Origin: Giardia intestinalis
Taxonomy: Eukaryota
Reading direction: 5' to 3' (one strand)
Assembly (NCBI GenBank): GCA_000002435.2
Contig: CM018790.1
DNA: 64,000 nucleotides
Shown here: positions 17,696 through 64,000 of the stretch, one piece after another
How the letters are laid out: every line of letters begins with the position of its first letter
Numbering within the stretch: the stretch's first letter is position 1
Position numbers and translations under genes: made by a program
The notes under the pieces: generated by a model
What the model saw: only the letters and a program-made list of their open reading frames with translations
Told to the model about the DNA's origin: nothing
Database searches by the model: none

Positions 17696-17721
17696 ATAGA
17701 ACAATGATTTTGTTATTTACT

Positions 17722-30658: not shown

Positions 30659-31543
30659 ATGCCCGATAGCCACAACTTTGTAGGCGTGCTTCTTAGCATC
30701 CTCCCAGTTAAGGACTTTCCTTTCTCTATTGCAGGAGGGGGAGACTCGGCGCATATTTCTTTTCAGTCACCCGACAAGCTCTGTTGCGCAAAACTGATCC
30801 TCCAGGGTCAGTGCCTCTTTTCGCAGCCAGAATTAGAAATCTACAACGTCTCTATGGCTCTGCAAGGAGAGAGGCTTTGCGCTGGCAACTTACTAGATCA
30901 AGATGGATCCTTGCCAGCTAAAGTTGTTGTAGCTGCCGCTCCACTACCTGATAACCCTAAAGGTTATGATTGTTATGGCTTTGCAGATCTGCTCAAATCT
31001 CTGGCTTCAATGTCCCAGGCGATTGTGGATTGGTCCGCACAGATGAGCAGTGAGGTCAAGTATTCACTCCCAGACATTCTCTCGGCTCCAACCTCACAGT
31101 CTAAACAGCTTCCCATCTCACACCAAGCTAAGATAGAGCTTTTATCTTGCAATGTACCGAAGATCACTAAACGTCTCTGTCGGAGCTGTCGCGAAGTGTC
31201 CACTCTTATTGACAGAGGGGCCATTGAGGAACGAATGCGGCAGTTCGTTGCACACTGCAATGCTTGCACTCGCACATCACTTAAGATAATGAAGCACTAT
31301 CAAGATTCTATTTCAGGCAGTCAAAATACCCTCTTCTCAGCGTCTGGCGAATCTTTACTAATGCGTAGCATAGTAGAGAAGCTGCAAGCACAGCTATTCA
31401 TCTACCAAGCAAAGATAAAGACCCTTATGTCATCTTCTGACGTTGGTAATAACCTGTACAATCCTCAGACTCTTGAAAGCTTACTCACACTTGTATCAAG
31501 CTTCTACGATGGTCAAGTTACACGCCAGGCATTCATCCCCTGA
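30659..31543 (+). CDS. Hypothetical protein (294 aa), no recognisable domain
   Basis: Uninterrupted ORF with ATG at 30659 41 bp after preceding stop; coding-like composition; no motif recognised. Confidence 0.5.
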   Translation: MPDSHNFVGVLLSILPVKDFPFSIAGGGDSAHISFQSPDKLCCAKLILQGQCLFSQPELEIYNVSMALQGERLCAGNLLDQDGSLPAKVVVAAAPLPDNPKGYDCYGFADLLKSLASMSQAIVDWSAQMSSEVKYSLPDILSAPTSQSKQLPISHQAKIELLSCNVPKITKRLCRSCREVSTLIDRGAIEERMRQFVAHCNACTRTSLKIMKHYQDSISGSQNTLFSASGESLLMRSIVEKLQAQLFIYQAKIKTLMSSSDVGNNLYNPQTLESLLTLVSSFYDGQVTRQAFIP

Positions 31544-35827: not shown

Positions 35828-38323
35828 TCATTGCTTGGCGTCCAGTGAGTCAGCACTGTCTTCAAGGGATGCAATCTGCGAGACAGTACCCCCAATAAAA
35901 GCAGTCTGCTTGAGCTTGTCAATCCAACGTTGTACCTCCTCAACAGAAAGCTTGGATACAGAGTATCGGCCACCAGGCGTAACCATTGACTCGAAGTATC
36001 CCATGCTCTTTCGAATCAGAGTTTTTGCCTTAGAATCAGTATGTCCATAGTCTATGTAGTTAGATATCTCTGCAGAACGATGCTCGAGATTCTTAGCCTG
36101 CTGCTTGAGGTCAAGAATACTATTTTCAGCAAGGAACTGTTTGAAAATTTCTAGTGCTTCACCCACAGTTGTACAGGCCTGCGTATATGAATCAATAATT
36201 TTCTGACTTTCCTCTAATATCTTTTCAACTCTTTGTTCATCATCCTTACATGCCTCAAGTTCCTTCTTCACCTCTGGGTTTTCAACCAATCTACTACAAA
36301 ATGATCTCTTTGTCAACGCCAACTCGTGATTAGCTAACAGACAGAAACACCTTTTGCAACAATTTCCATAAGGCCTTATAAAAGACCAGCTGTATGTCAC
36401 CTTGGCAAGTAAATTATCTTCAAGCTTCTCTTGCTTGCTCTTCTCCATAGCTTTATATCGACTCATCGGAATAGGTGAGCTACAGCATATTTGATAGCAC
36501 CCTTTGCATCGCAATCCAGGATGGTCTAGATCACGATCCTCATAAATGTATTTCTTAACACGAGCCTTATCCTGAAGAGATTTTTCCTTGCTATATAATG
36601 CTCTAAGATAACCTCTTTCTTCCTCCATATCCTTTCTCTTAGTCTCCAAGCCATCACGCAGCCCGGGCAGCGTATAAACCAATGCCTCACTCACACGCAG
36701 AGTAACATCAAAGCTGACTGTTTCCTGAACATGATGTGGGTGCAAACCAGCAATGTGTCCGAACATACGTGCGAGCTCTCCACGCATCCTGTGCCAGCTT
36801 TCAGCAGAGGCGGAGCACATCTCGTTCGTTATCAGATTTGCATTCTGGGAACAAATGGCAAGAAGACGCACGATTTCACTGTCAAAGCAGTATAGTATCT
36901 TCTTTTCTAACGGCAGCCTAATTCCACTGTCAGTGAAATACTTCATTAGTGAGGGAAGGGTGTCGCCAGGTTTATATAGTGTAGCCCTAGTGTGTGTGAA
37001 CCCGATAACGATGTTGTCCAGTATGCTCCTATGGAAATGCTTGAGAAGCTCCTCGATACAGTACTTGAGGAAAACAGTGAAGCGGGAATCGTTCGGTTTC
37101 AGTAGAAAGCAAACACCGTAAAGAGTTTTATGATGCGAAAGATGCCTTATGATGTTGCGTATGTTCTCCGCGTCCTTCTCCAGCCCCCGCGTGTCACCCA
37201 TACCAGGAGTGTCTATGACGCAGACGCGCACGGGTAAACCGTTCAGAGTGTAGTTGAAATAGTAGTCCTGTGGAGCCTGTGTTACCGAGCCACCCAAGGC
37301 TTCTGCCTCCTTTTCTCCTGTCGAGATTTCTACACCGTCGAAGACGAATCTTACAGGAATTGGCCAGCGTGTGTTTTCGAGAGGAATTGTTGGGAGTCTA
37401 GAGAATTGAGAGCACAGCGAAAACGTATTGACAAGGGTGCTCTTACCGACTCCCGATTCCCCTATCAGAAGAATGGATAGCTCTTTTGTTGGCGGGAGGT
37501 CTGTCGGTCCAAAAACAGAGGGCTCCACAGCAGGACAACAAGCAGATGCAGCCACCAACGCAGCGTTAACGTCTATGGGAGAAGGAAAGGAGGGAACGGT
37601 GGGTGGCAGCGTACTGATCTCATGACTAGAAACATGATTGGAGCCATATTGCCTTTTAGACCCAGAAGGTTTGGACTTTGAACGAGGCTTAGATAGCTTG
37701 TCAATGGGTGAATCCAAATCCTTTAATACCTCATCTACCGTCGCATATGCACATTTTTCTATGCACTTCTTCAATTTCTCGGGAAGATGACGACGACACC
37801 CACGAAGCTGATCATAATTCGCCAGTTTTTCCCCAGTATATGCCTCATAAATCAACACAGCAAGGGAGCGCAGGTTATCTCCCTGAAATGTGGGAGCATC
37901 GTTCTTCGATAATGGAGCTGTCTTCAGTAAAACTTCACCATCTCTGAGAGATACTGTGTCCAATGTTAAATCCTTACAAAACGTAGGAGGATCACTGGCA
38001 TACCCTTCCTTCACTTTCTTAAGGAGACGTACAGTCCATTCTATTACAAGGTCTTCTCGGCCAGAAGGAGAGAGACCAGAGTCCTCAGAGAAAATGCTGC
38101 GAAGAGTTGGAGAGTCTTTCGAAACAACAGGCCTTTGGGTAGTTTTGGCATATGGAGCGCCCCCTACACAACCAGGTGGCATGACTGATGGCGTTTCTTT
38201 TATTTTTTGTGAAACTTTGCACGGCGTACTTGATTCTTCGTTGATCGGTATGAAAAGTATTACGAAAACCCAGGATAATATTAGCAAATGATATGTCCCA
38301 TCTTTAAGTGTGATTGATTCCAT
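35828..38323 (-). CDS. Septin-clade (septin/paraseptin/AIG1 superclade) P-loop GTPase paralog A: N-terminal signal-anchor TM, kinase-C-lobe-like remnant, GTPase with degenerate G4, Cys-cluster, C-terminal coiled coil
   Basis: Track ORF starts at TTG (38341); first ATG is 6 codons in (cat at 38321-38323) giving MESITLKDGTYHLLILSWVFVILFIPI (hydrophobic anchor). G1 ILLIGESGVGKSTLVNTFS (cf. septin GESGLGKSTLINSLF), switch-I GGSVTQAP, G3 VIDTPGMGDTRG (septin DTPGxGD), post-switch-II block YGVCFLLKPNDSRFTVFLKYCIEELL, G4 position NIVIGFTHTRATLYKPGD (septin NIVPVIAKADTLT; KxD lost). Upstream: APTFQGDNLRSLAVLIYEAYTGEKL resembles kinase subdomains VIII-IX. Downstream: LRCKGCYQICC...GNCCKRCFC Cys cluster, then heptad-rich tail. 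Confidence 0.7.
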   Translation of the reverse strand: MESITLKDGTYHLLILSWVFVILFIPINEESSTPCKVSQKIKETPSVMPPGCVGGAPYAKTTQRPVVSKDSPTLRSIFSEDSGLSPSGREDLVIEWTVRLLKKVKEGYASDPPTFCKDLTLDTVSLRDGEVLLKTAPLSKNDAPTFQGDNLRSLAVLIYEAYTGEKLANYDQLRGCRRHLPEKLKKCIEKCAYATVDEVLKDLDSPIDKLSKPRSKSKPSGSKRQYGSNHVSSHEISTLPPTVPSFPSPIDVNAALVAASACCPAVEPSVFGPTDLPPTKELSILLIGESGVGKSTLVNTFSLCSQFSRLPTIPLENTRWPIPVRFVFDGVEISTGEKEAEALGGSVTQAPQDYYFNYTLNGLPVRVCVIDTPGMGDTRGLEKDAENIRNIIRHLSHHKTLYGVCFLLKPNDSRFTVFLKYCIEELLKHFHRSILDNIVIGFTHTRATLYKPGDTLPSLMKYFTDSGIRLPLEKKILYCFDSEIVRLLAICSQNANLITNEMCSASAESWHRMRGELARMFGHIAGLHPHHVQETVSFDVTLRVSEALVYTLPGLRDGLETKRKDMEEERGYLRALYSKEKSLQDKARVKKYIYEDRDLDHPGLRCKGCYQICCSSPIPMSRYKAMEKSKQEKLEDNLLAKVTYSWSFIRPYGNCCKRCFCLLANHELALTKRSFCSRLVENPEVKKELEACKDDEQRVEKILEESQKIIDSYTQACTTVGEALEIFKQFLAENSILDLKQQAKNLEHRSAEISNYIDYGHTDSKAKTLIRKSMGYFESMVTPGGRYSVSKLSVEEVQRWIDKLKQTAFIGGTVSQIASLEDSADSLDAKQ

Positions 38324-38385
38324 AGTCAATCTCAGAATCAATGATTGGATTAAAAAACCAAAAAGATCTTTTAAACAAATTTAGA
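38324..38385. promoter_or_regulatory. Candidate A/T-rich bidirectional promoter/initiator region shared by the divergent GTPase paralogs (if paralog B uses ATG at 38386; only 17 bp if it uses ATG at 38341)
   Basis: Sequence agtcaatctcagaatcaatgattggattaaaaaaccaaaaagatcttttaaacaaatttaga between the two divergent start codons; Giardia promoters are short A/T-rich initiator elements. Confidence 0.4.
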
Positions 38386-40254
38386 ATGAGCAGAGCAAGT
38401 TCGTCAGCCAGCGATACGTCAACATATGGCTCCGAGTCATCATACAACTCAAGTTATTCCGACGAATCTGACAAGTATGAATCGTCAGACACATCTACAA
38501 ATGATTCATGTGGCCGTCGTGCCAACATCCTTCTTTTGGGAGAAACCGGGGTCGGGAAGTCCACCTTCGTCAACGGATTCATTAACTATTTGCGCTTCGA
38601 TAAAATGCCAGAGAGCCCAGAAGATACAAAGAGAACTATATGGGCGGTGCCAATGAGTTTCAGTTTAATAGATAATAACTATAAGCAAGTGTCTGTGTCG
38701 GTCGGACCTTCTGACAAGAATGAGGACGTGGAAAGCGTGGGCGCTTCTGTGACCCAAGACCCAAAAGTGCACGTTTTTGAAGCTCATGAAACCGAGATAC
38801 ATTTGATTGACACGCCAGGAATTGGAGATACGAGGGGCTATGACTATGATAAGGCGAACTTCAACAAGATCATTAATTTCGTCAAGGACTACGAGCTCCA
38901 CGGGATCTGCATGCTCCTGAAGCCGAACAATGCTCGCCTCAACGTGTTCTTCAAGTTCTGTGTCGAGGAGCTCTTGGTCCATCTACCAGCTAACGCAGTG
39001 AAGAACATCATCTTTTGCTTCACAAACGCGCGTTCCACCTTCTACAAGCCTGGAGACACATACACACCTCTTAAGAAGCTTCTAGAGGACAGAAGCATCA
39101 AGATAGCCCTTGCCGAAAAGACAATGTATTGCTTTGATAATGAGGCTATACGTTTTCTTGCAGCTCGTGCAAATGGTGTCACATTTTCTCCCGAAGACAC
39201 AAATAGCTTCTGTGAAAGCTGGAAGAGGGCATCCGATGAGCTCAAGCGCGCGATAAACCATCTGAAAATAATCAAACCGCAGAGTGGAAAGGCAATCAGC
39301 CAGCTGGAGGACGTGCGCAGGACAATCACAGGCCTCTCCATTCCCATGGCAGACATTACGCGCATCATCCAGGAGAATATTGACCTTCAGAAGGGCCATG
39401 AGAAGGAACTTAAGAGCCTATCGGGAGAGGAGGACGACCTTAAGGACAGATTGAAAATGGAAGTCATCCGATACGACGTTATAGAATTCAATCAGCCCCG
39501 TACGGTCTGCACAACTTGTGCAAAACAGGTCACGGTTAACGGTGTAACGTGTATAGAATTTGATACTGCTTGCCACGATCCATGCTATTTAACGACTGTC
39601 ACCGCCATGCAAATGGGTCACCCAGAGCTACGAGGTTGCTGGGCTATGAATGGAGACATGTGTCATATTTGTGGTCACTCCTATATGGAGCACATGCACA
39701 CGATGCATAAAGCGAGTCCCAAGAAGGTCACTGAAGACGATCCCCAAGTACTGGAGCGCCTCAAGAGCACCAGTGACAGACAGGCGGTAATACAAGAGGA
39801 GATCCGCAAGGCGAAGGACAAGATTAAACACTACAAGAAGGAGTACCGCCGTATCATAGAAATAAGTGCTCGATTCGCGCAGTTCATCAAGAAGAACGCG
39901 ATCCTGGACTTCAACTCCTCTCTCGGCGATTATCTCAAGACTCAGATCAAAAAGCTCGAAGACGCATCTGACCTCTCCGACATTGACAAGAAGCGCCTCA
40001 ACGGGTTCAGAGAATCACTGAAGCGCTACGAGGAGGAGGTGAAGATCTTCCAGGAGGCCATTTCACGTGGGAAGGTAACCGTTCCAACAAACAATGAGAT
40101 AAGCGAGCTCATCGATGAACTCAAAAACCTTCCACTGACAGGCGAAAGTTTCAAGATAAGCCTCCAGGCAAACGAAAGGATGCTCAAGCACTACGCTGAG
40201 CACCTGGGCAAAGCCAAACCGGCAACCAGCTCTAAGAAAAAGCGCAGCAGGTGA
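38341..40254 (+). CDS. Septin-clade P-loop GTPase paralog B (soluble; acidic Ser-rich N-terminus, GTPase with degenerate G4, Cys/His zinc-finger-like insert, C-terminal coiled coil, basic tail)
   Basis: ATG at 38341 (alternative ATG at 38386, MSRASSS...). G1 ILLLGETGVGKSTFVNGFINYL, G2-like GASVTQDP, G3 LIDTPGIGDTRG, septin-like FNKIINFVKDYEL (cf. septin FKTIISYIDEQFE), HGICMLLKPNNARLNVFFKFCVEELL, G4-position NIIFCFTNARSTFYKPGD. Zn-like cluster CTTCAKQV...CIEFDTACHDPC...CWAMNGDMCHICGHSYMEHMH. AGTGAAC poly(A) signal at 40278-40284. Clear paralogy to 35828..38323 over >300 aa. Confidence 0.75.
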   Translation: MIGLKNQKDLLNKFRMSRASSSASDTSTYGSESSYNSSYSDESDKYESSDTSTNDSCGRRANILLLGETGVGKSTFVNGFINYLRFDKMPESPEDTKRTIWAVPMSFSLIDNNYKQVSVSVGPSDKNEDVESVGASVTQDPKVHVFEAHETEIHLIDTPGIGDTRGYDYDKANFNKIINFVKDYELHGICMLLKPNNARLNVFFKFCVEELLVHLPANAVKNIIFCFTNARSTFYKPGDTYTPLKKLLEDRSIKIALAEKTMYCFDNEAIRFLAARANGVTFSPEDTNSFCESWKRASDELKRAINHLKIIKPQSGKAISQLEDVRRTITGLSIPMADITRIIQENIDLQKGHEKELKSLSGEEDDLKDRLKMEVIRYDVIEFNQPRTVCTTCAKQVTVNGVTCIEFDTACHDPCYLTTVTAMQMGHPELRGCWAMNGDMCHICGHSYMEHMHTMHKASPKKVTEDDPQVLERLKSTSDRQAVIQEEIRKAKDKIKHYKKEYRRIIEISARFAQFIKKNAILDFNSSLGDYLKTQIKKLEDASDLSDIDKKRLNGFRESLKRYEEEVKIFQEAISRGKVTVPTNNEISELIDELKNLPLTGESFKISLQANERMLKHYAEHLGKAKPATSSKKKRSR

Positions 40255-41121: not shown

Positions 41122-42516
41122 ATGAAGATTTATAAAATACCCATGAGTGGAGCCGATGTAAGCACAGGCGGCACGCGCATGCCATCATCGCTAGAGGATC
41201 TTCTGGGTAGCCACAGCAAGGACGAGCCGTCAACCAGTAGGGACATAAGCACGAGGATAGGCGCGCTCAAAGCTCGGTTGACGCGTGCGACCGCAGCATC
41301 TGGCGGCACCACTGCACCGGACGTCCGCCTCTCGTCTCCCCACCTCACAGAGCCTTCTTACAGGCGCGCTTCAGTGGGAGGAGGTGAGCTTGGACGTCTG
41401 GCCTCCGAGATCCCCCGATCCAGCCTTTCTGACGTGCACTATTCAGAGGAGCTGTACAGTGCCAGATACAACGAGCAAGCAGCATCATCGAGCACACTAG
41501 AGGTGGAGATGCTGAAGCGGCGCATGGTAGAGCTGGAGAACGAAGTCATTGTCTTGAGGAACGAGAACGAGGCCCTGCGCAATCGGCTGACAATAGCGTG
41601 CACCCAGGGCCTGTGTCGGTCGGCCATAAACCAGAGCGCGATGAACGCGTCTCATGCTCCGGCCTCCAGGCAGAACGTGACCAATGCCACCGTGAGCAAT
41701 ATACGACCAGCCGCTTTGGACATGTCAGACTTTGAGCGCCAGTGGCAGGCCATTGAAGCAGGGGTGAACAATTGTGTGGATCGCACCTCGGTGAGCGATC
41801 CTCCTCAGATGGAGTCGCATACACCCAATACGGCCATATCTCCTAGCACTGGCAACAGTGCACTAACACGATCCCGTGCTTCTATCATGTCTGCTTCTCG
41901 TATTTCAACCACTCCACCAGTTTGGTGTAACGATGCACATAGGAAATCAAGAAAACTCAACAAAGAGATTGAGGAAGCATTGGGGAATGCGATCGCATCT
42001 AGTAATACAGGTCTTTCGTTTACAGCCTGTGGCAACGCAGATAGGGGTTCTTTAGGAAAGCAAACACAGACTCCAAATCCACATACAATCACTACAAAGG
42101 TTGCACTACCAACTGCAGGAAACTGCAAAGAGGCCGTCGCCCCAAGACTGGTTGGCATAGATGAAGATGCAGATGAGCCGTGCATTGTTTGGAAGAGGGA
42201 GACAGCGTCTGGATTGGTGCCTTCGGGGGCTCTGTCTCTTGAGCACATTACTGAATGCTTATATGGTGAACACGCACGGACGTTCAGAGGATGGATTATT
42301 GCTCTTCGTAAAGATGGTGAACAGAAAAGCATTGCGGACCTCATCGACCAGTGGGCAGCACTTCCTTCCGAGAGGCTTAGTCTTATTCCAAAGATTGGTC
42401 ATCCAAATACTATCGTTCTTGTGTCCCGCACCCGTGCTCTTTGCTTTGAAATTCATCATACAGAAGACTACACCATATGGGTCAATTATCTGGTTCAGAA
42501 GTTGAATGGATTGTAG
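41122..42516 (+). CDS. Hypothetical Ser/Thr-rich protein with central coiled coil and C-terminal PH-domain-like region
   Basis: ATG at 41122. Coiled-coil LEVEMLKRRMVELENEVIVLRNENEALRNRL; C-terminus LSLEHITECLYGEHARTFRGWIIALRKDGEQKS...IVLVSRTRALCFEIHHTEDYTIWVNYLVQKL fits PH-domain pattern ending in W...I. 3' end overlaps the next (convergent) gene by ~35 nt. Confidence 0.5.
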   Translation: MKIYKIPMSGADVSTGGTRMPSSLEDLLGSHSKDEPSTSRDISTRIGALKARLTRATAASGGTTAPDVRLSSPHLTEPSYRRASVGGGELGRLASEIPRSSLSDVHYSEELYSARYNEQAASSSTLEVEMLKRRMVELENEVIVLRNENEALRNRLTIACTQGLCRSAINQSAMNASHAPASRQNVTNATVSNIRPAALDMSDFERQWQAIEAGVNNCVDRTSVSDPPQMESHTPNTAISPSTGNSALTRSRASIMSASRISTTPPVWCNDAHRKSRKLNKEIEEALGNAIASSNTGLSFTACGNADRGSLGKQTQTPNPHTITTKVALPTAGNCKEAVAPRLVGIDEDADEPCIVWKRETASGLVPSGALSLEHITECLYGEHARTFRGWIIALRKDGEQKSIADLIDQWAALPSERLSLIPKIGHPNTIVLVSRTRALCFEIHHTEDYTIWVNYLVQKLNGL

Positions 42517-43933
42517 TCTGTCTTTTATTTTTCAACGGTTCCAATTGTATTACCGTACAATCAAAATGAGGAACACCGTCACATTTGAGAGCATCTACCA
42601 ACTCTGAGCTAACAAGCCCTGTCTGGTTCAATTCTAAGAACTTTGGTTCAGGTCTGGTGTTGGCGCCGTCAATCACTCGTCCAAAAGCTGGACTATAGAC
42701 GGTCGCTATTTCGTTGACCACAGAATTGATATAATTGAGAAGCTGAGAGCGTACATGGTCTAGGTATTGCTGTGTGCAAAATCCGCTTTGCTTAGTGCAC
42801 ACTTCCGCAAGAATTTCACCGTCCCAGCTGACCATTTCTTGAGGGAGGTCGCATATGCATCTGTTGTAGTTTTGAAGAAGCGACGGCCCTGGTTTGAAGA
42901 TTGCTTCAAAAGGTCCAAGAAGGTATTGTGGAAGGCTGGCCACAAACGCCTCATAGTCGTTGCCACTCTTTGTCTTAATTATGCTCTTCAGTTGTTCTAG
43001 AAGCTCACCACGAAAGCGTACGTCGACACTTTTAGCTTGTAGTCCCAGGTGGGGATGAAGCCGTATATCCAATCCTCGGCGTATCCACACGTATCTCCAT
43101 GGTCCGTTCGTGTAGGTATAGGCCACTTGCTGTACTGCAGTGATACACTGGAACCTTGTAGCGGATCGGAGTGTAACTCTATAAGAGCTCCCGTCCGATA
43201 TTTGTGCTGCTGTTCTCTCTACATGAAAGATGTCCGAGGTGATACTCTCCAATTGATTGAGATACTGTGCAGCGCGCCTGAGACCATCGGCTATTGAAGT
43301 TGCAAACCGTAAGGTAAATACCGCTTCTCTTTGAAACAATCTATATAACATGTCTATAGTCCAGATTGGACGAACTGCAAAGAGTACCTCCATAAGCATG
43401 GCCAGGGAACTCTGGGTGAGAACACTCTGAGGTAAAGACTGGAGACACATGGGGGTATCGTAGTCTATCATCCAGTCGAAGTTTCCGTGTGACTTTGGGG
43501 TGAAAGTTAGATAGACTCGATGGAGCCTTGGAGTAGGGTAGAGTGTTGTCTGCTCCAACAATGATGGTAGGGGAATGATTGCTTCTGCTGGGAATGCAAG
43601 AGAAGGGGAAGAAAGGTAGCTAATGTTTCTCTTCACTTGGCCCCACACCTTATACTTCCAGGAATAGACGGTAGACTCTTCGCCTGTGTCTGTAGAACGA
43701 TACACTGTCCTTACTTGTGCATAGGATACTATGTGTTCTGTCCTTTCTGGACTGTTGGGAAGTAACATTGGCTTTATAGTAGCAAGTTTGCCGAGGGTGA
43801 TTGGCGGCATATTGTGAATAGAGGATGAGGAGGTGCACTGTGAGAGGTGCATGCGGAGAAGCTCCGGGGCAGCAAAATGCCGCAGGGCTACAGAAGGAGA
43901 GTCCACTCTGAACGGTAAGATAATAACATTCAT
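42482..43933 (-). CDS. TFIIIC subunit tau95 (Tfc1/Sfc1/GTF3C5)-like protein
   Basis: Track start is GTG; first ATG is codon 17 (MNVIILPF...). Matches tau95 signature blocks as I recall them: ...MLMEVLFAVRPIWT (cf. ELFQERPIWS) and YTYTNGPWRYVWIRRGLDIR (cf. ITGPWRSLWIRFGYDPR). Confidence 0.5.
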   Translation of the reverse strand: MNVIILPFRVDSPSVALRHFAAPELLRMHLSQCTSSSSIHNMPPITLGKLATIKPMLLPNSPERTEHIVSYAQVRTVYRSTDTGEESTVYSWKYKVWGQVKRNISYLSSPSLAFPAEAIIPLPSLLEQTTLYPTPRLHRVYLTFTPKSHGNFDWMIDYDTPMCLQSLPQSVLTQSSLAMLMEVLFAVRPIWTIDMLYRLFQREAVFTLRFATSIADGLRRAAQYLNQLESITSDIFHVERTAAQISDGSSYRVTLRSATRFQCITAVQQVAYTYTNGPWRYVWIRRGLDIRLHPHLGLQAKSVDVRFRGELLEQLKSIIKTKSGNDYEAFVASLPQYLLGPFEAIFKPGPSLLQNYNRCICDLPQEMVSWDGEILAEVCTKQSGFCTQQYLDHVRSQLLNYINSVVNEIATVYSPAFGRVIDGANTRPEPKFLELNQTGLVSSELVDALKCDGVPHFDCTVIQLEPLKNKRQTTIHSTSEPDN

Positions 43934-44014
43934 TTTCTGCGGCTTGGGCAGCCCAAGGCCGAGGACATGAAAAACGCCCACTCTTATTTACACTCAACAA
44001 GCATGCCACTGCCC

Positions 44015-44656
44015 TTACTCCTTAGAGATTCTCATGGGAATCCCAATGCGGCGGTTTCTCTTGAAGCTGGTTTTCCGGACCCTTGTATCGACAACATTCT
44101 TCGCTGTCGCCAGTTGCTGAAGCGCTTTAGGATTTTTCCTGAAGAGGTCGTCAAGGATGGAAGACGTTCTCTGCTTCTTGGGTATCCGCGCAGAGTAGAA
44201 CTCGCCTGGTCCCTCTATGACCCTTCCAAAGTGCACGTTCCTCGGAAGCTTGCTAGAGTCCCACTCTATATCCGCGATCCCCTCCTCTGGTTGTAGCACT
44301 CCTCGCATGTCCAGCGCCTTCATGTCGCGAAGCTGTTCTGGAGTAAGATCCTGCTCGGGGATCTCATGCCATCGCCTAAGACTCTCGAGCTCCCGCTTCT
44401 TCTCTGCCCGCACGTCGTGGATCTTCATGCTCTTTGGGATGGCCCCAGGCTCTCGCCAAGTGAATTTACCTAGATCCACCTTACTGTTGGGATCTCTCAT
44501 TGCAGGCAGGATTGCCTTTTCCATTGCCTCCTGCGCACTGATAGAAAGTTTGCTACAAGCCTCTTCAGTAGCTGGGTCTAGTATTCTATCTAAAACTGGC
44601 TCTAGTCCGTACATCTTCATTTTTAAATTTAACAATCGTGCTAGCAATCCGTGCAT
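44015..44656 (-). CDS. FCF2: Fcf2 pre-rRNA processing protein (DNTTIP2 C-terminal domain family)
   Basis: ATG verified. C-terminal Fcf2 domain pattern LPRNVHFGRVIEGPGEFYSARIPKKQRTSSILDDLFRKNPKALQ (cf. PKxFQIGTIxExPxEFYSSRLxKKERKxTLVDELL). Plus-strand ORFs 43967..44296 and 44217..44687 judged spurious. Confidence 0.6.
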   Translation of the reverse strand: MHGLLARLLNLKMKMYGLEPVLDRILDPATEEACSKLSISAQEAMEKAILPAMRDPNSKVDLGKFTWREPGAIPKSMKIHDVRAEKKRELESLRRWHEIPEQDLTPEQLRDMKALDMRGVLQPEEGIADIEWDSSKLPRNVHFGRVIEGPGEFYSARIPKKQRTSSILDDLFRKNPKALQQLATAKNVVDTRVRKTSFKRNRRIGIPMRISKE

Positions 44657-44692: not shown

Positions 44693-45964
44693 TTACTTCT
44701 TCATAGAATTACAAATTACATCTATTTTCTTTCGCAGAAATACCTCATAGTTTTGGCCAAGGCCGAGAGACTGCACGGTGCGTCGTGCGACTTCCTCGGA
44801 CGTGTCTGTTTCGTAGAAATCTATCTTAATCTTTTTGGAACCAAACAGTATGTTTGTGGAAAAAATAAGCTTACCTTTCTCGGCAGTGTCTATGTTTCCT
44901 TTTGCTTGTGGACTGGGAGTGGCGGGGTCTTCGTCACTCAAGTACCCATTCTTGATCATTAAGCACTTAATCTTATCATAGAGCATGACATAGTCTCGCG
45001 ATGACACGTTGTTTTTCTGCATAAACTGGAGCATAGCTTCTCCGGGATCCTGTCCAATAAACCCGTGGAAGAGAACCTCTGTCCCATCACTCAAATCAAC
45101 AGGGAGGTCAAACTCCTTTGGCACATTGGAGTTCTCGTGCTTTCTCTCTCCAGGATTGAAGCTTGATGTTGAATCACATGAAATGGGCATGTCTTGTGCA
45201 TGCTGCAACCCTTCCTGTATATGTGTAGTTGGAAGCTTCACAGTGAACTTAGAAGAATCCTTTATGCTTAGCGACTGATCTTGGGGTCTTTGATCTGTAG
45301 TTGGCGACGGTTGAACCGCTAGGGGCACAGTGTCTAGAGTACCGGCCCTCTTAGCATAGAGTTTCTGATTAGCTTGTGATACTGCACCAGAGGGACTAAG
45401 GCTGACGGCAGGAGAGCTGGACTCGGTAGGAATTGCCTGGACGTCCTCAGGTGTCTCTGAATAAGTGGTCCGAAGATTAAGCAGCATAATTTGGCGCCTC
45501 TGCAGACAGTACTTAGTCGCTCTTAATAGGCAGCTCTTCAAGATTTCAGAGCTCTTGCTAAAGACATGTATGTAATGAAAGCTGTATCCTGGAGACACAT
45601 AAGGAGCAGCTATTTGCTCCACTGTCATGCAGTCCTCGTCTTCAGCATTGGTGTCGCAGAGGAAGCAAGATTGGGGCAGATTCTTAAGGCTCAAAAGACT
45701 TTCCAGCAGGGGCCTTGTCCGCTCCTGGCTTGAATCATATATGGCAATGATAATATCTGTAAAGTGTGTATCTAAGCGCTCTGCCAAAAATCCCAGAGAA
45801 GTGTCTGAATTCAGAGAGACTTGATCTAAAGTAACTTGCACACTGGACCCCTCCACAGAAGTCGTCAAAATTGGGCGCCCGCTGTTAATGGAATCCACGT
45901 AGGATGCAGTAGAAGCATCACTAGGCCCTACAAAGAGCCAGCGAACCATATTTTCAGATGCCAT
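44693..45964 (-). CDS. Hypothetical protein; N-terminal region with Ras-like fold hints but no P-loop; C-terminal ubiquitin-like/PB1-like beta-grasp hints
   Basis: ATG verified (cat 45962-45964). WLFVGPSDASTAS in place of a GxxxxGK[ST] P-loop; IIIAIYDSSQERT; C-terminal KIKIDFYETDTSEEVARRTVQSLGL. Weak, pattern-level only. Confidence 0.45.
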   Translation of the reverse strand: MASENMVRWLFVGPSDASTASYVDSINSGRPILTTSVEGSSVQVTLDQVSLNSDTSLGFLAERLDTHFTDIIIAIYDSSQERTRPLLESLLSLKNLPQSCFLCDTNAEDEDCMTVEQIAAPYVSPGYSFHYIHVFSKSSEILKSCLLRATKYCLQRRQIMLLNLRTTYSETPEDVQAIPTESSSPAVSLSPSGAVSQANQKLYAKRAGTLDTVPLAVQPSPTTDQRPQDQSLSIKDSSKFTVKLPTTHIQEGLQHAQDMPISCDSTSSFNPGERKHENSNVPKEFDLPVDLSDGTEVLFHGFIGQDPGEAMLQFMQKNNVSSRDYVMLYDKIKCLMIKNGYLSDEDPATPSPQAKGNIDTAEKGKLIFSTNILFGSKKIKIDFYETDTSEEVARRTVQSLGLGQNYEVFLRKKIDVICNSMKK

Positions 45965-46158
45965 TTTTTACAAAGTGGAGCATAAGGAACACGATGAAAG
46001 GTAATTGTAACTGAAAGCTGATGCTAGCTGATGTTAGCTGATGCACACACTACCGTGTACTTTCTGGTTTACTCATAATAATCACACAAACCTAGCATGG
46101 CAGCTTCTGGTCAAGTTACTGCCTTTGGTGCTTTGGTGGGAGGCTAAAAAATTTGGAC

Positions 46159-47379
46159 ATGGCGTCGTTCCGTGCCAAGAAACCTATACCCACCAGTCAT
46201 GTAGAGCCGGTGCAACCGCTGAAAGTGGAGAAAAAGGTCTCGGATGGACAAACCCAAAAGTTGTTCAAAAGGCTAGCTCCGAGTCAGCAATCACAAGTCG
46301 GAATATTTCGCCACGTAGTCCTTATAATTGACTCATCTGAATCCCTCCCGCTAACCTATCTGTCTGAGTTTGTCAATAGTCTCTTTCTTTATGTCCAGTT
46401 CATTCTTTCCCATCGGCCCTTAATTCGGGTTGCCTTTATGACCCTGCAGAACTCGCTCTGCTATCTTGAGCTCCGCTTTTCGTCCAACTTATCTGCCTTT
46501 GAAGAGGTCTTGAGGGACGGATTTCGTCCTTCTGGTCACATAGCGCTGGCCACGGGACTAGACCAAGCCTATGAGCTGCTGATGAATAACAAGTCTGCGG
46601 CGTCTTCTCGGCGAATCCTATATGTCAATTTCTCCAACGCTACTCTGGACTCTCTTGACATCTTCAGTGTATTGGAGAAGCTACTGGCCGCGCAGATACA
46701 GGTGGATATTGTTTCACTTACAAATCGCTTTGGGGTGCTCGATCACATAAGCCGGGTAACAGGCGGGAGGCATCTCATTGTGGACCGTGACGTCAAAGGT
46801 GGGTTGCTCAACTTGCTCAAGAGGCTGGAGTTGCGATCTGAGGACACTAGGCTCATGCACTCAAAAGGAAGGGAAGAACATTCCCTGAATTTACAGGCCT
46901 CTCACAACCAGACTGCGACAGACACGGAAGGAGGGAAGTTTATCATGGTGGGCTTTCCCGTACACATTTGTGATGATGCAATCTGCTTTTGTCACAACAG
47001 ACATGGTACAGGCTTCTATGAGTGTCCGTTTTGTTATGCAGTCGTGTGTGACATCTCCGAGTGCGTGTGCTGTGGCCTGCAACTGGTCATGTACCCCAAC
47101 TTGTACAGGGGGGCACTCCTTCATAAGCGAGCTCTGTCGTTCAAGAAATTAGATACCTCTTTGTCTCAGACTGAAAGCATTGTAAACACTACCAACCCAG
47201 CAGAGGATGGAAAGAACATCAAAGCGAAAAGCATGTGCTCACTGTGTCAGATGCAATACGGAACAGATACAGATACCAGTCAGTATTTGTGCAGTTTCTG
47301 CGACGCCCCGTTCTGCAAAAGCTGCTCCGAGCTGCTGGCAGAGGCGAAGGTGGCCTGTACGGTGTGCGGTCAGATTTGA
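46159..47379 (+). CDS. SSL1: TFIIH subunit p44/Ssl1 (GTF2H2): vWA domain plus C4 zinc finger and C-terminal RING-like finger
   Basis: Track ORF starts at TTG 46153; real ATG 2 codons later (ggacATGgcg). vWA MIDAS-like RHVVLIIDSSESL; zinc motifs CFCHNRHGTGFYECPFCYAVVCD and CSLCQMQYGT...YLCSFCDAPFCKSCSELLAEAKVACTVCG. Confidence 0.65.
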   Translation: MASFRAKKPIPTSHVEPVQPLKVEKKVSDGQTQKLFKRLAPSQQSQVGIFRHVVLIIDSSESLPLTYLSEFVNSLFLYVQFILSHRPLIRVAFMTLQNSLCYLELRFSSNLSAFEEVLRDGFRPSGHIALATGLDQAYELLMNNKSAASSRRILYVNFSNATLDSLDIFSVLEKLLAAQIQVDIVSLTNRFGVLDHISRVTGGRHLIVDRDVKGGLLNLLKRLELRSEDTRLMHSKGREEHSLNLQASHNQTATDTEGGKFIMVGFPVHICDDAICFCHNRHGTGFYECPFCYAVVCDISECVCCGLQLVMYPNLYRGALLHKRALSFKKLDTSLSQTESIVNTTNPAEDGKNIKAKSMCSLCQMQYGTDTDTSQYLCSFCDAPFCKSCSELLAEAKVACTVCGQI

Positions 47380-55477: not shown

Positions 55478-57922
55478 TCAAATGGTCTCAGTGTTAGACA
55501 GTGATGTAGTTATATGTTGTCTTGCACCTTCTTTATAGCGAACAATCAGAATAACTACAATCCAAAGAATAATTAGAGAAAGCATAATAATAAAGAGCGC
55601 CAAGCTTGATGAAGCTGCCGGCGATATGATACTTTTGCGTGGCTCTTGAATACACGTCGACACAGTATCTTCCGTAGGAGTCAAGATGTACCCTTTGCTG
55701 CACGCTGTACATTGAATGCTGTCGTGTGAAGCAGTGCTTTTCAGAACTGCACAGCCTGTACATCCTTGCGGGCAGGTGGTCATGAAGCTTGTAAGGGTAT
55801 TAAAGTAATATCCACGCTGTGGCTTAGAACATGTCCTTGGGCCTTCACAAATCAAACAGTGAGGCATGCATTGCATAACTCTGGAGGTCAATGCGTCCAA
55901 GTAGTATCCCTTTGCTGCCTGTAAGCAATCTGTATCCTTTTCTCCCTTACAGGAGTCACAATTGTTTGTACATTTTATGCAGGCACCAGATCCCGTGAAA
56001 CTGGAATATCCACGCATACACTTTTCGCAGACAGTTGTGTTACTGCAAAGAATACAGTTATCTATGCACGGGCTACAGATTCCAGCCAGTTTATCTGCCA
56101 TGAAGCTACCGGGAAGACATTCGGTGCACCTATTCTCGGCATCGCAAGTCTTACAGTTATCTGGGCAGCGGTAGCACTTAAGGTCCTCCATTCTGTATCC
56201 CGGAACGCAAACACCGCAGGTCTCAGGTGTTGAACACTTTAGACAATTAACTGGACACGGAGAACAGCTTCCTTCAGCAGTACGATAGTTATAGTCCTTG
56301 CATTCGTGGCAAAAGTCTCTCTTAAAGCATCGCTTACAGTTTGCTGGGCACGGTATACATATACCATCAATAAGAATACTCCCATCAGCACATTGAAGAC
56401 ATATACCCTCTGAGGTGCAACTAGCACAATTTGCCACAAAACTAGAACAGAGCACGCATGTGACAGAGTCAGCAGCCTGCAAAGTGATAGCACTCTCCAT
56501 ACAGGCAGTGCATTGACCAGTATTCGTGCAAGTTTGGCAACCTGTGATTGCCGTGCACGGTGGGCACTTACCTTCCTTGAGATAATGTCCTTCACTACAA
56601 ACGTTGCATATACCAGGATTGCTAGCAAAGCACTGAACGCAATTGGAAACGTAACAATCTGGGTACTTCACGCATACATTGCTGGAAAGATAGTAGTCAT
56701 CAGCACACGCTTCGCAGATGGCACGCCCGGTCCTTGAGCAGCGAATGCAACCCATCAGCAACGTGCCAGAGCATGTCGCGTGCTCACATATTGTACCAGA
56801 ATGTCCATCGAGGCATGTTTGGCAAGAGTATTGGCTTGAGCAGGTTCGACAATTGATGGGACAGACAAGGCAGGAACCGCCGTCAAGATAGTACCCTTCC
56901 TTGCATGCTGCACACATTCCGGAGTTGGTTGTAGAGCAGGACGTACAGTAGTCTTGTGGGGTACCGTCACACATGAGAGTCATGCACTCGTACCCAACGT
57001 AATTTGTCGGGCATGGAACGCATCCAGCACCATCAAGCCTATAGTCATCTTGGCACTCCATGCAGTAGTTGCTGAGGGCTGTGTTGCTACACTTTGCGCA
57101 GTAATCGCGAGATACCCCATAACACTTGATGCTTCTGCAATTAATCCCCGTTCGTCCGTTGGGACAAGGGATGCATTTATTGTCTTCACGCAGATAGTAG
57201 TCATTTTTGCAGATCGTGCAAGTGAGGGTGTCCTTATTGCATTCCGTACAATAAGGTAGAATTGCCTTGTTCCCGTTTGATTCGCACACAAGATCAGCAC
57301 AATTAATCCCTGTATATGGCGCAGCACACGGGACGCAATGTCTATTAAAAGCACCGCCCCAGTAATATCCAGGAAAGCACTCAGCACAGTATTCGCTAGT
57401 GAGTCCGCCACACTTGTTGCAATACTGATAGGAATACAGGCTGTTACAATAAAGGACCGTGCAATTCTCGCCGCTGAAAGACCCTGTACAAGGCTTGCAC
57501 CCGGTAGTGGTCAGGTAGAAGTTTGTGTTGCAGCTTGCGCATTCGCTTTTGCCATCGACACATGCTTTGCAGTTGCGGAAAACCTTGTTGTTGCATAACC
57601 GGTCCATACAGTTCATGCCTATTGAGTCGTCTGGACATGGTGCACAGCTTCCTCCAGAAAGTTGATAGTTGGCTTGGCATTCCGTACAAGAGTTGCCACT
57701 GCACGTCTTGCAATACCTTACAGAAGTCGTCCCACAAGTTAGATACTCACAGTTCTCCCCGGTCCGACCGCCCATGCATGGGGTACAAGCCCCTCTAAAA
57801 TCTGGAGCAAATCCGTCGCTGCAACGGATGCACTGCTCCGTACTTGCCGGGCACTGTAAGCAGTGCGCATCGGTGCACTGTGCAGTGAGGCTGGTCAAAA
57901 GGTGTAAAGTCAAGAGCACCAT
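55478..57922 (-). CDS. Giardia high-cysteine membrane protein (HCMP; VSP-like, type I, no CRGKA tail)
   Basis: ATG verified. Signal peptide MVLLTLHLLTSLTAQ; >10% Cys with dozens of CxxC spacings (CTECQ, CKACVDGKSECASC, CIPCPNG...), single C-terminal TM LALFIIMLSLIILWIVVILIV and short tail RYKEGARQHITTSLSNTETI (VSPs would end CRGKA). Internal repetitiveness generates many spurious antisense/alt-frame ORFs in the track. Confidence 0.85.
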   Translation of the reverse strand: MVLLTLHLLTSLTAQCTDAHCLQCPASTEQCIRCSDGFAPDFRGACTPCMGGRTGENCEYLTCGTTSVRYCKTCSGNSCTECQANYQLSGGSCAPCPDDSIGMNCMDRLCNNKVFRNCKACVDGKSECASCNTNFYLTTTGCKPCTGSFSGENCTVLYCNSLYSYQYCNKCGGLTSEYCAECFPGYYWGGAFNRHCVPCAAPYTGINCADLVCESNGNKAILPYCTECNKDTLTCTICKNDYYLREDNKCIPCPNGRTGINCRSIKCYGVSRDYCAKCSNTALSNYCMECQDDYRLDGAGCVPCPTNYVGYECMTLMCDGTPQDYCTSCSTTNSGMCAACKEGYYLDGGSCLVCPINCRTCSSQYSCQTCLDGHSGTICEHATCSGTLLMGCIRCSRTGRAICEACADDYYLSSNVCVKYPDCYVSNCVQCFASNPGICNVCSEGHYLKEGKCPPCTAITGCQTCTNTGQCTACMESAITLQAADSVTCVLCSSFVANCASCTSEGICLQCADGSILIDGICIPCPANCKRCFKRDFCHECKDYNYRTAEGSCSPCPVNCLKCSTPETCGVCVPGYRMEDLKCYRCPDNCKTCDAENRCTECLPGSFMADKLAGICSPCIDNCILCSNTTVCEKCMRGYSSFTGSGACIKCTNNCDSCKGEKDTDCLQAAKGYYLDALTSRVMQCMPHCLICEGPRTCSKPQRGYYFNTLTSFMTTCPQGCTGCAVLKSTASHDSIQCTACSKGYILTPTEDTVSTCIQEPRKSIISPAASSSLALFIIMLSLIILWIVVILIVRYKEGARQHITTSLSNTETI

Positions 57923-58448: not shown

Positions 58449-59513
58449 TTAACTGGGTAGAGCCAGATCTTCGAGCCTGAGGTCACCTTGGTCAATTGCC
58501 TTCACTGTCAACATGTCTGCACTGTCTGCCGGTAAGTTCTGGGCAACAGGATGCATCGGGCTAAGACAGAAAGATGGCTTTCGCTGCTTACTACCCAACT
58601 GGGGTAGTCTAACGGATGAAGTGCTCGGTAGCGTCTTCTGTGGAGAGCTCCATCTGGCCTGCTTCCGCGTGACATGCATGGTCGGAGACAGCGCACTATT
58701 ATTTGCAATCTTGTCGGATAGAGGAGCCGGTAGAGCACATCCTTCGATGTTGTCAGCGTCAGACAGAGAGTGCTTGCTTCGCCAACTATGGTAGTGTATA
58801 TCCGGCGCCAGATGGTTCATCACATAAATGTAGTCATTGGAGTGCTGGCCAACGGGAGTGTGAAGCAGAGAGCCATTTGTTTCGCTGCTCTGCCTCATTC
58901 TTGCACGCTGAAGAGATGTGTGATGATAGGTACGTAAGGAGCACAGCTTTGGAGAATAGCACGGGCTCTGCAATGATACAGATGAATCTTCATGCGAATA
59001 TAATGACTTGTTAAGAGTGGCTACGTGCCGCCACCGCGTAGGACTAGGGCCAGCCGCTGGGGAGCGAAAGGAGCACTCTGACATCGGCTCTGGCTGAGAC
59101 TCAGAAATAGGGTGCCTTTCGGGGGCAGAAACAGCCTCTCCCGGCGAGGATGCACGACTACGTAATAAACAACCTTCGTACTTTCTTGCTGTCTGTATGC
59201 GTTCCTGTCGGTATCGTTCTGCAATGTTAGAGAGAGACGATCTGGTTTTGCGGTTGGATAATTGCAAATTTAGCTTTTGTCGCTTCTCCTCCAGGTCCCG
59301 CGCTCGTTGCAGTTTCGTCAAACTTTCCATAGTGTTATATTGCTTGAGGACACATTTCTCTTGTGGGGTTAACAAGTCGGTTTGATACTGTCCAAAACTC
59401 TCTGCATCAGCTACAGGAGTCTGGGGATCTATATATGTGAGGGGAAACCCCGCCTCGTAGGAAGTTAACCCTGTACGGTCTATATTTCCAAAGCAAAGTG
59501 AGCTGACTGTCAT
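58449..59513 (-). CDS. Hypothetical Ser-rich protein (354 aa)
   Basis: ATG verified (cat 59511-59513); long uninterrupted ORF, no recognisable domain; short coiled-coil KLQRARDLEEKRQKLNLQL. Confidence 0.5.
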   Translation of the reverse strand: MTVSSLCFGNIDRTGLTSYEAGFPLTYIDPQTPVADAESFGQYQTDLLTPQEKCVLKQYNTMESLTKLQRARDLEEKRQKLNLQLSNRKTRSSLSNIAERYRQERIQTARKYEGCLLRSRASSPGEAVSAPERHPISESQPEPMSECSFRSPAAGPSPTRWRHVATLNKSLYSHEDSSVSLQSPCYSPKLCSLRTYHHTSLQRARMRQSSETNGSLLHTPVGQHSNDYIYVMNHLAPDIHYHSWRSKHSLSDADNIEGCALPAPLSDKIANNSALSPTMHVTRKQARWSSPQKTLPSTSSVRLPQLGSKQRKPSFCLSPMHPVAQNLPADSADMLTVKAIDQGDLRLEDLALPS

Positions 59514-61377: not shown

Positions 61378-64000
61378 TCATAATAGTTTACACAGATGTT
61401 CAAAGAGATACTGCTTCAGCTGCTTCAAACATTGTACGTCAGATGGGAGTTGTCTATCCGTGACGGGTATCCTTATAGTGCTCAAGGCGACAGCAATGTC
61501 TCCAACCACTCCTACAACTTCAGCAATTGTGTGATCCAATCTGTACTTCTCTTTCACAAAGTCTATGAGTTCATCAACGAGCATTGCCTGCTTACGTCGG
61601 AGCTCTATCATGCCACGCCTCACTGCGTCAATGCTGGTGAGTAACTCCTCCATGGACTTCCGGGTACGTGCCTCCGCAGTGCCGAGGGTTTCCAGATAAC
61701 TGCGCAACTCGGCTTCGCGCTTCTCCAAAATAAGATGGCGCATGGTAGCGGAGCGAGGAAAAGTCTGATTGGCGTTCTCCTCCATTGAAATAATGGATGC
61801 AGAGGGTCTACTATTTGCTGTCTCAGTGGGCATATTATCGCGCTGCTGGGCAGAACGAAGGAGAAAGTCAAGGCATGATATCTTTTGCACTAAAGAATCG
61901 AGGATTTCTGACTGCTGAGCGGTTTTCTTGGTGACAGACTTGCCAGACAGCGCGGCTATCTCATCGTCTATCATTAGATAATCTGACTTAGGTGGTAGAG
62001 TAGCATATTCTGGGGGTGGCTTAAGATTATACCGCGGCGGACTGGATGTGAGCTCGTCAACGGCAAGCATGGTCTGTTGAGTTGTGAGCTTTTTGGCCCG
62101 TTCTTTGTCTATAAGAGAGAGCACTTCTTTTGCTTCATCTCGTTCGTCACGTGCCTGCTCATCACGCTCCTGCTTTATTTCTGAAAACAACCTTCCATCT
62201 TCACAACTGGAAATAGACGCAAATGAAGAGACGTTGACAAGGGAATTGAGTGTCTGAAGTATTCGAATGCTCTCTGATGTGTGGCCATAATCGTAATGTG
62301 TTTCTAGTTGATACCTAGTTTCGAGAAATTCTGGTAAAATGTCATTCATAAGATGCTTGAGAATTGTCGCTGCATCCGGTGTCTCATCTGTTCTGGAAGA
62401 AAGCATTGCCTTCAATTTTTGTAAGATTGGCATGTTACGAGATATGGGTATCTCTGATCGACTGGATGCTTCTAGAAGGTTCTTCAGATCGCTATCCATC
62501 CATGCATTGCTGTTGGACTCGCTGTACTCCTCAATTAGGAATCTTAGTGCTCTATCAAATCCGGTGTAAAATAAGCAATTCTCGTTGATCTCATTCTTTA
62601 GCCGTGTTATGTGCATACTTGATGGAAGAGAAAAGGGAAGATTGGACTGCCTATGAACGATAGAGCTTTCATAGATATTAACTGATTCTTGAGAAGTTAG
62701 TTTGGCAGAGTCGATATCCTTTTCTGCCTTCTGATGGACTACTCCTGGTTCTGCACCTGTAAGAATGTCACCTGAACTAGAAATGCCAGAGGCAGCAATT
62801 CCATTTGTGTACATAACTTTAGCGTGCTCCGGTATGCAAAATGGACGAATGGATTGTCCAATCCAAGAAGATAAGGCCTCGTGGGTCAAGTTTGGCATAA
62901 GATAGTTATCAATATAACTAGTAGGGAAGACGGCTGAAACAGTATCTGGGAAAGTGGTATGCGCCGCATGCCTATGCACAGCTCCAGAGCCGAAAGCCGA
63001 TAACCCCCCTCCTGGAAGTATTTGCAGTGATCCAGGAGCTGGTCCAACAGATCCACTTAATGAGTTAGAGTTCGTAGACGACACCTGATGTGCGCCTCCT
63101 TTTCCTTGTGAAACCAATGGGACTCCGTTGACATCGGACTGAAAGAGAGCATTAGAATCAGCCACTTGTCGCGAGCCTCGCGTGGATGCCTTGGCACGTC
63201 TGGCTTGAGGCTTTCTATTTGTCTCTTCACGCTGGGTAGTATTTGGGCTTTCCTCAAGTTTAATTGACGTATCTTGTGATAACGAGCCCCCTAGAGATGC
63301 CAGTCCTCGTCGACGACTTGTTCCAGACGTATTTTGAATACCGGAAGATGCAGCAGCAAGCGTTGTTGAACCAGCAGGCTTACCACGTGGTTTCCGTTTG
63401 CTTAGTGAAGTTTGTGGCGTATCCTGCAGAGGATTTTTGATATCCTCCAGATCTTTTCCTTGGTAATATTCTAAGTACACACGTGAATAAAAGGGGGCCC
63501 CATAAAACAACAAGTTTGCCCCCCGGTTCGAGCTACTCCATATGCGCGGAAAGATCGGCAGTAGAAGACGGTTACTATTCTCATATAGTCCTGCTGTTGG
63601 AAGATTAGCGAAGAAGCTTCTATAGTCTAGTGGCGATGGCACGGAGAAGTGCAGATCCATTGATATAAGTACACATTTTTCACTCACACTGGGACACTGT
63701 TCATCAGGGTATGAGTATCTGATGGTTGAAACGAGATCAAGAAGAGAAGTAAATGACCTGGTCTGCTTCTTTAAATTGGATTCAATGATATCAGAATCTC
63801 TTGTAGAATCTGTGCATTGAGGAGAGTATCTCCACTCAATTAAATTACTAGCAAAGTGCCAAGAAGAGCGGAGAGCATCTAGCTCATGCAGAAACTGCCT
63901 TGCAGCCAGCTGAATGGTATGATCCTGGTCTGTAGGAACTGATAGATCTGTGAGTACCTTCTTAAAATAATCTGAATAACTCGATGCTAACCGTTTAGAA
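61378..64000 (-). CDS. Hypothetical coiled-coil/Ser-rich protein, 5' end beyond window end
   Basis: Track start at 63687 is a GTG; manual translation of the same frame upstream (63688-63999) shows no stop (...DQDHTIQLAARQFLHELDALRSSWHFASNLIEWRYSPQCTDSTRDSDIIESNLKKQTRSFTSLLDLVSTIRYSYPDEQCPSVSEKCVLISMDLHF...), so the N-terminus lies outside the window. Confidence 0.6.
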   Translation of the reverse strand, partial: SKRLASSYSDYFKKVLTDLSVPTDQDHTIQLAARQFLHELDALRSSWHFASNLIEWRYSPQCTDSTRDSDIIESNLKKQTRSFTSLLDLVSTIRYSYPDEQCPSVSEKCVLISMDLHFSVPSPLDYRSFFANLPTAGLYENSNRLLLPIFPRIWSSSNRGANLLFYGAPFYSRVYLEYYQGKDLEDIKNPLQDTPQTSLSKRKPRGKPAGSTTLAAASSGIQNTSGTSRRRGLASLGGSLSQDTSIKLEESPNTTQREETNRKPQARRAKASTRGSRQVADSNALFQSDVNGVPLVSQGKGGAHQVSSTNSNSLSGSVGPAPGSLQILPGGGLSAFGSGAVHRHAAHTTFPDTVSAVFPTSYIDNYLMPNLTHEALSSWIGQSIRPFCIPEHAKVMYTNGIAASGISSSGDILTGAEPGVVHQKAEKDIDSAKLTSQESVNIYESSIVHRQSNLPFSLPSSMHITRLKNEINENCLFYTGFDRALRFLIEEYSESNSNAWMDSDLKNLLEASSRSEIPISRNMPILQKLKAMLSSRTDETPDAATILKHLMNDILPEFLETRYQLETHYDYGHTSESIRILQTLNSLVNVSSFASISSCEDGRLFSEIKQERDEQARDERDEAKEVLSLIDKERAKKLTTQQTMLAVDELTSSPPRYNLKPPPEYATLPPKSDYLMIDDEIAALSGKSVTKKTAQQSEILDSLVQKISCLDFLLRSAQQRDNMPTETANSRPSASIISMEENANQTFPRSATMRHLILEKREAELRSYLETLGTAEARTRKSMEELLTSIDAVRRGMIELRRKQAMLVDELIDFVKEKYRLDHTIAEVVGVVGDIAVALSTIRIPVTDRQLPSDVQCLKQLKQYLFEHLCKLL

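Follow-up and report, generated by a model that had tools for sequence, protein, structure and literature searches.

We report that the minus-strand open reading frame (ORF) at 42482..43933 of a 64,000-nucleotide stretch of Giardia intestinalis DNA (GenBank assembly GCA_000002435.2, contig CM018790.1; hereafter the window) probably encodes the Giardia homologue of tau95, the subunit within the RNA polymerase III transcription factor TFIIIC that is also known as Tfc1, Sfc1 and GTF3C5/TFIIIC63, with a role on the A-box side of the factor as extrapolated from the yeasts and human. The frame of 483 codons has no internal stop; it is a genuine protein-coding gene, conserved between orthologues. Judged from its sequence, the central 250 residues of the protein carry the signature of the tau95 DNA-binding domain (DBD). 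The original prediction, made from the DNA letters, had placed a tau95 (GTF3C5/Tfc1)-like gene at this position, and this is borne out by a match to the Tau95 helix-turn-helix (HTH) family PF09734 (44.2 bits) and by a profile alignment to human GTF3C5 (hhalign probability 95.2 %). The designation tau95-like is justified, with only the HTH/DNA-binding half of the protein recognisable at the sequence level.

According to Feng et al. 2012, Best et al. 2004 reported no TFIIIC in Giardia, and their own BLASTp and Pfam survey of three Giardia genomes likewise found none, from which they argued for a primitive, archaeal-like system (PMC3369914). The premise of the original prediction, that early surveys found little or no TFIIIC, is thus correct. 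The view that the factor is absent rested on BLAST with yeast queries. Homology to Tfc1 and Tfc4 was reported by Proshkina et al. 2006 for every eukaryote in their survey, whose species list names G. lamblia (PMC1540719). The literature is in conflict on Giardia Tfc4, with homology reported in 2006 (PMC1540719) whereas none was found in 2012 (PMC3369914). A 2020 re-annotation of strain WB renamed 598 hypothetical proteins by conserved-domain and BLAST matches (PMC7000408). GenBank, RefSeq and UniProt now list the exact protein as 'RNA polymerase III transcription factor subunit', and orthologues appear in UniProt as 'Transcription factor IIIC subunit 5 HTH domain-containing protein'.

The tau95 identification is correct and was already known, since the database names and the 2006 paper precede it. 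The original prediction expected a homologue to revise the TFIIIC picture; by these names and the report of Proshkina et al. (PMC1540719), the revision has already happened. The value of our analysis thus lies in confirmation, not discovery. The claim of a Giardia without TFIIIC, still carried over from the 2004 and 2012 surveys, is wrong where at least one subunit is concerned. The analysis also yields two concrete leads on whether Giardia TFIIIC is full or reduced, namely an N-terminus that is conserved yet unrecognisable and a missing acidic tail.

Identification of the tau95 DNA-binding domain

PF09734 was the single Pfam-A family matched at E<=10 by hmmscan (E 4.1e-11; curated gathering cut-off 23.7 bits), with the best stretch running from residue 258 to 295 against profile positions 97-134. 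When the protein was split for a separate Pfam search, the half containing the GPWR signature scored 33.5 bits by itself (E 8.5e-8). The RPIW half by itself reached 13.3 bits (E 0.15), which lends support without being significant, and maps to earlier PF09734 positions in the correct order. Tau95_N, the other Pfam family put forward in the original prediction, gave no match at E<=10. With PF09734, the Pfam check proposed there was passed well over the curated threshold. NCBIfam returned no match for the protein, as expected for a eukaryotic protein.

Searching 1.84 billion cluster representatives with a Giardia profile (HMMER) retrieved only two more genuine homologues, P0033 and P0035, each independently over the PF09734 cut-off (43 and 47.4 bits). 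Another match from the same search, P0034, was rejected as a spurious match to a phage tail fibre. Neither this search nor one with a seven-sequence profile provided a bridge to canonical tau95 at E<=0.001 in large metagenomic libraries: the seven-sequence profile returned only diplomonad sequences and a short GPWR-core profile only three candidates, with no alignment to the canonical family.

Against 177,635 Protein Data Bank (PDB) sequences, a profile of Giardia orthologues matched only human GTF3C5 (9gi4, E 0.0019; 8clk, E 0.01), so that the reciprocal type of search also points to tau95. These alignments extend from GPWR..WIR.G.D.R onward to the CDL and CT...G.C motifs. The hhalign comparison of the seven-sequence diplomonad profile with human GTF3C5, whose query sequence is 100 % identical to 8clk chain E, spans 135 columns at E 2.9e-8. 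A single BLASTP comparison of human GTF3C5 with the Giardia protein aligns 39 residues at 41 % identity (34.7 bits, E 6e-6), which, by our own reckoning, becomes borderline at the scale of a proteome with about 5,000 proteins. With so borderline a signal, it is plausible that the gene escaped BLAST surveys started from yeast queries for this reason. As a yardstick, human GTF3C5 itself reaches only 33-35 bits with yeast Tfc1 and 61 bits with the DBD of S. pombe Sfc1; with human-to-fungal scores this low, the divergence of the Giardia protein is normal for the fast-evolving tau95 family.

Both sequence blocks quoted in the original prediction, VLFAVRPIWTIDMLYRLF and YTYTNGPWRYVWIRRGLDIR, are indeed the RPIW and GPWR signatures of the family, as comparison with human (LFDIRPIWS / GPWRSLWIRFGYDPR), yeast (RRPIW / GPWRNTYIKFGIDPR) and S. 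pombe (KRPVWT / GPFRDTYTRFGYDPR) confirms. All seven diplomonad sequences share R188, P189 and W191 of the first block, and in the second G277, P278, W279, R280, W283, R286, G287, D289 and R291 are invariant in the diplomonad alignment. The complete tau95 motif series, RP[IV]W, GPWRxx[WY]x[RK]xGxDPR, CDL and Cx4GWC, is colinear in the Giardia protein, in which DIR replaces DPR; P0033 and P0035 keep DPR. Between RPIW and GPWR lie 89 residues in Giardia vs 33 in human, corresponding to an insertion of about 55 residues.

Gene structure and conservation

The 483-residue product is identical to KAE8302129.1 / XP_037901705.1 / UniProt D3KGS4 (UniRef100_D3KGS4) of Giardia intestinalis ATCC 50803 (WB), assemblage A. 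We favour the ATG at 43933 as the start for three reasons: its context, AGAAAATG, is A-rich, all five Giardia-assemblage orthologues begin with MNVI, and the RefSeq protein has 483 residues. An in-frame GTG at 43981, which would add 16 residues, was rejected on the same grounds. An A-rich motif at Giardia start codons has been described (PMC7000408).

Orthologues from other Giardia assemblages align gaplessly at 86, 76, 76 and 69 % identity, and the length of 483 codons is common to the five aligned Giardia orthologue sequences. Ratios of non-synonymous to synonymous substitution rates (dN/dS, Nei-Gojobori) of 0.12 (dS 0.57) and 0.14 (dS 1.36) against two other Giardia lineages indicate purifying selection. 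Constraint is as strong on residues 1-164 as on the central domain (dN 0.055 vs dS 0.49), and the C-terminal tail is the fastest-evolving portion of the protein (dN 0.12 and 0.31). Local gene order is kept in other assemblages, with an Fcf2-like gene upstream and a convergent gene downstream. Only 81 nt separate the stop of the Fcf2-like gene (44015) from the tau95-like ATG, an adjacency also kept in other assemblages, and the 3' overlap with the convergent gene recurs with the identical 35 nt in two further lineages (L003, 896-2347 / 2313-3134; L004, 5001-6452 / 6418-7848).

The homologue P0033, 29 % identical, is syntenic in assembly GCA_006247105.1, which we take to be Giardia muris, where its neighbours on either side, Adaptin_N/LRR genes and a P-type ATPase gene, are those of the window. 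P0035 is a 512-residue tau95-like protein (L001 6001..7539, on a 45 kb Logan contig of SRR31929897) with 23-26 % identity to the Giardia protein. Its neighbours, a CEPT76 peptidase, a 5'-nucleotidase and PAP2, differ from those in the window, and its motifs are nearer the canonical form (GPWRKTWFQRGFDPR). It comes perhaps from another diplomonad.

N-terminal region, C-terminal tail and structure model

Similarity to the triple-barrel dimerisation domain of tau95 was not detected at the sequence level. The N-termini of the three diplomonad proteins match neither Tau95_N nor any other Pfam family at E<=10. Compared with the N-termini of human GTF3C5 and Sfc1, the Giardia N-terminus reaches an hhalign probability of 0.1 % and Smith-Waterman z-scores of -0.7 to 0.2 against shuffles. 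The profiles are thin (effective number of sequences, Neff, about 2), which makes their failures weak as negative evidence. A full-length AlphaFold2 model built from a shallow alignment (pLDDT 43) predicts, at low confidence, mainly long beta strands at residues 63-103. In structure comparisons with this low-confidence model, Sfc1 matched no better than generic winged-helix proteins.

No strongly acidic C-terminal tail was found: the last 60 residues have a net charge of -3 and no acidic run, and the most acidic 22-mer of the protein (-5) is located within the DBD. The tails used for comparison, QEHEGFEDLEEIDDDYDDIFGD in Sfc1 and the poly-Glu run in human, are far more acidic. The acidic tail is dispensable in yeast, according to the authors of the Sfc1 study (PMC3799434).

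Proposed role and alternative explanations

The A-box DNA-binding element at the centre of the S. pombe tauA module is reported to be the Sfc1 DBD, and the Sfc1 N-terminus together with Sfc7 forms a TFIIF-like triple barrel (PMC3799434). In yeast, the contact of tauA with the A-box is weak and mostly to the DNA backbone, and tauA positions TFIIIB (PMC11724288). By analogy, the Giardia protein would belong to a tauA-like module contacting tRNA-type genes around their A-box, and would help to position Brf1-TBP (TFIIIB) and RNA polymerase III on the genes that this polymerase transcribes. With its barrel unrecognisable and its acidic autoinhibitory tail missing, Giardia TFIIIC may be reduced or strongly diverged. 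A TFIIIC-related Pfam domain was found in none of the 21 larger ORFs of the window nor in its giant ORF, and the neighbouring genes, none with a relevant domain, were rejected as TFIIIC partners. No tRNA genes or Rfam RNA genes lie within the window.

A different reading of the same protein is that it is derived from tau95, keeps only the DNA-binding module and acts outside canonical TFIIIC, alone or with lineage-specific partners that it would engage via an unrelated N-terminus; it could aid Brf1-TBP directly or organise chromatin in the manner of the extra-TFIIIC sites of other eukaryotes. We consider this unlikely, although several observations speak for it. The N-terminal 164 residues are constrained like the DBD yet show no barrel similarity, but triple-barrel domains diverge fast: in the Trypanosoma brucei protein TbTau95, part of the secondary structure predicted for the dimerisation domain is reported as not conserved, and partners were found regardless (PMC10781861). 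Long beta hairpins at 63-103, as expected of a barrel, are moreover predicted by the low-confidence model, and negatives from profiles as thin as ours carry little weight. BLAST and Pfam surveys of three Giardia genomes found no other TFIIIC subunit (PMC3369914), against which stands the Tfc4 homologue reported for Giardia in the 2006 paper (PMC1540719). The absent acidic tail and the insertion of about 55 residues relative to human also favour a non-canonical role. We give little credence to a more specific proposal, that Giardia and its relatives possess a stripped-down TFIIIC in which the tau95 DBD is fused to a lineage-specific N-terminus replacing the triple barrel, with no acidic tail and few or no tauB subunits. 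If true, it would mean an A-box-side factor assembled differently from any described.

It is very improbable that the likeness to tau95 is a coincidence, with an unrelated winged-helix protein sharing a short motif rich in tryptophan and arginine. The Pfam score lies 20 bits over the curated cut-off, three diverged diplomonad sequences exceed this cut-off independently, four motifs (RPxW, GPWRxxWxRxGxDxR, CDL and CTxxxGxC) are ordered as in human GTF3C5, and the matches among PDB sequences are to GTF3C5 only. The idea of a spurious or non-coding ORF has nothing for it beyond the fact that long ORFs can arise by chance, and is scarcely credible: it is refuted by dN/dS of 0.12-0.14 at dS of 0.57-1.36, and the 483 codons in five orthologues, the syntenic orthologue in GCA_006247105.1 and the RefSeq protein also stand against it. 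A divergent homologue of TFIIIC subunit tau95 is thus our preferred identity for the protein.

Feature coordinates and other genes in the window

Table 1. Features of the tau95-like gene and its immediate surroundings (window positions)
Feature	Position	Strand	Remarks
tau95-like coding sequence, complete	42482..43933	-	ATG to TGA, stop 42482..42484; 483 residues; ORF and translation
A-rich context AGAAAATG directly 5' of ATG	43934..43940	-	typical Giardia start context
N-terminal region, residues 1-164, conserved in Giardia	43442..43933	-	no detectable similarity to tau95 triple-barrel dimerisation domain
tau95-type DNA-binding region, residues 165-415 (winged helix and following helical part)	42689..43441	-	
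VLFAVRPIWTIDMLYRLF, RP[IV]W signature, residues 183-200	43334..43387	-	aligns with human LFDIRPIWS
YTYTNGPWRYVWIRRGLDIR, GPWRxxWxRxGxDxR signature, residues 272-291	43061..43120	-	inside best Pfam stretch
Stretch aligned to human GTF3C5 284-457 (Giardia residues 267-404)	42722..43135	-	hhalign; hmmsearch vs 9gi4_A
CICDL	42845..42859	-	counterpart of human LCDL
CTKQSGFC	42776..42799	-	counterpart of human CTERDGWC
C-terminal tail, residues 416-483, mildly acidic	42485..42688	-	short diplomonad-conserved motif L435, L445, A448, L449, D452
3'-end overlap of tau95-like gene with convergent 464-residue ORF 41122..42516 (+)	42482..42516	.	35 nt
Fcf2 pre-rRNA-processing protein homologue	44015..44656	-	Pfam 64.7 bits; immediate upstream neighbour

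A further general-transcription-factor subunit, in an organism reputed to have a reduced set, is suggested by the ORF at 46153..47379 (+), which matches the Pfam Ssl1-like family (TFIIH p44 subunit) at 29.6 bits vs a 27-bit cut-off. Its syntenic counterpart in another Giardia lineage (L004 1575..2927) has the same Ssl1-like match, and the listed TTG start of the window ORF is probably too far upstream.

The products of the divergent genes at 35828..38341 (-) and 38341..40254 (+) are large GTPases paralogous to each other (29 % identity over 571 residues, E 8e-68). Both show weak AIG1, Septin and MMR_HSR1 matches, with AIG1 just over the cut-off in one and Septin under it in both. Their listed starts share position 38341, and therefore at least one start (TTG) is probably over-extended. 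The 814-residue ORF at 55478..57922 (-) has a sub-threshold match to the Giardia VSP family (28.0 bits vs a cut-off of 31.4) and is probably a cysteine-rich membrane protein, not a true VSP. The start of the window cuts off a giant open frame at 2..17716 (-), which has at least 5,905 codons and gave no Pfam-A match at E<=0.001 in either half. Six ORFs of 274-769 residues were also without a Pfam-A match at E<=0.001 (41122..42516 (+), 44693..45964 (-), 30659..31543 (+), 17830..18657 (-), 58449..59513 (-) and 61378..63687 (-)), two of them likewise without an NCBIfam match. The first two of those listed have syntenic counterparts of matching position and length in another Giardia lineage.

Comparison with known systems

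Human GTF3C5 (TFIIIC63; 8clk chain E, 9gi4) shares with the Giardia protein the RPIW, GPWRxLWIRxGxDxR, CDL and CT-x3-G-W/F-C motifs in the same order. Unlike the human protein, the Giardia protein has about 55 extra residues between RPIW and GPWR, shows no similarity to human residues 1-250 (barrel and linker) and has no counterpart of the human poly-Glu acidic tail. The 22-residue acidic autoinhibitory peptide of S. pombe Sfc1 (DBD structure 4bji; Sfc1-NT/Sfc7 barrel structure 4bjj) is absent from the Giardia protein as well. Sfc1 and S. cerevisiae Tfc1/tau95 form heterodimers with Sfc7/tau55; for the Giardia protein, the literature searched contained no comparable experimental work.

Trypanosomatid Tau95 (Tb927.10.980, LmjF.21.1100) offers a parallel. 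Trypanosomatids, too, are divergent protists in which the first surveys were without TFIIIC and a database annotation came later, and the dimerisation domain of their Tau95 is likewise less conserved than the DBD (PMC10781861). In contrast to the Giardia protein, the trypanosomatid dimerisation domain is still recognisable by HHpred and modelling (PMC10781861). Trypanosomatid Tau95 is nuclear, was found at tRNA genes by chromatin immunoprecipitation and co-purified with Tau55, Tau131 and Tau138, which led to a four-subunit TFIIIC (PMC10781861).

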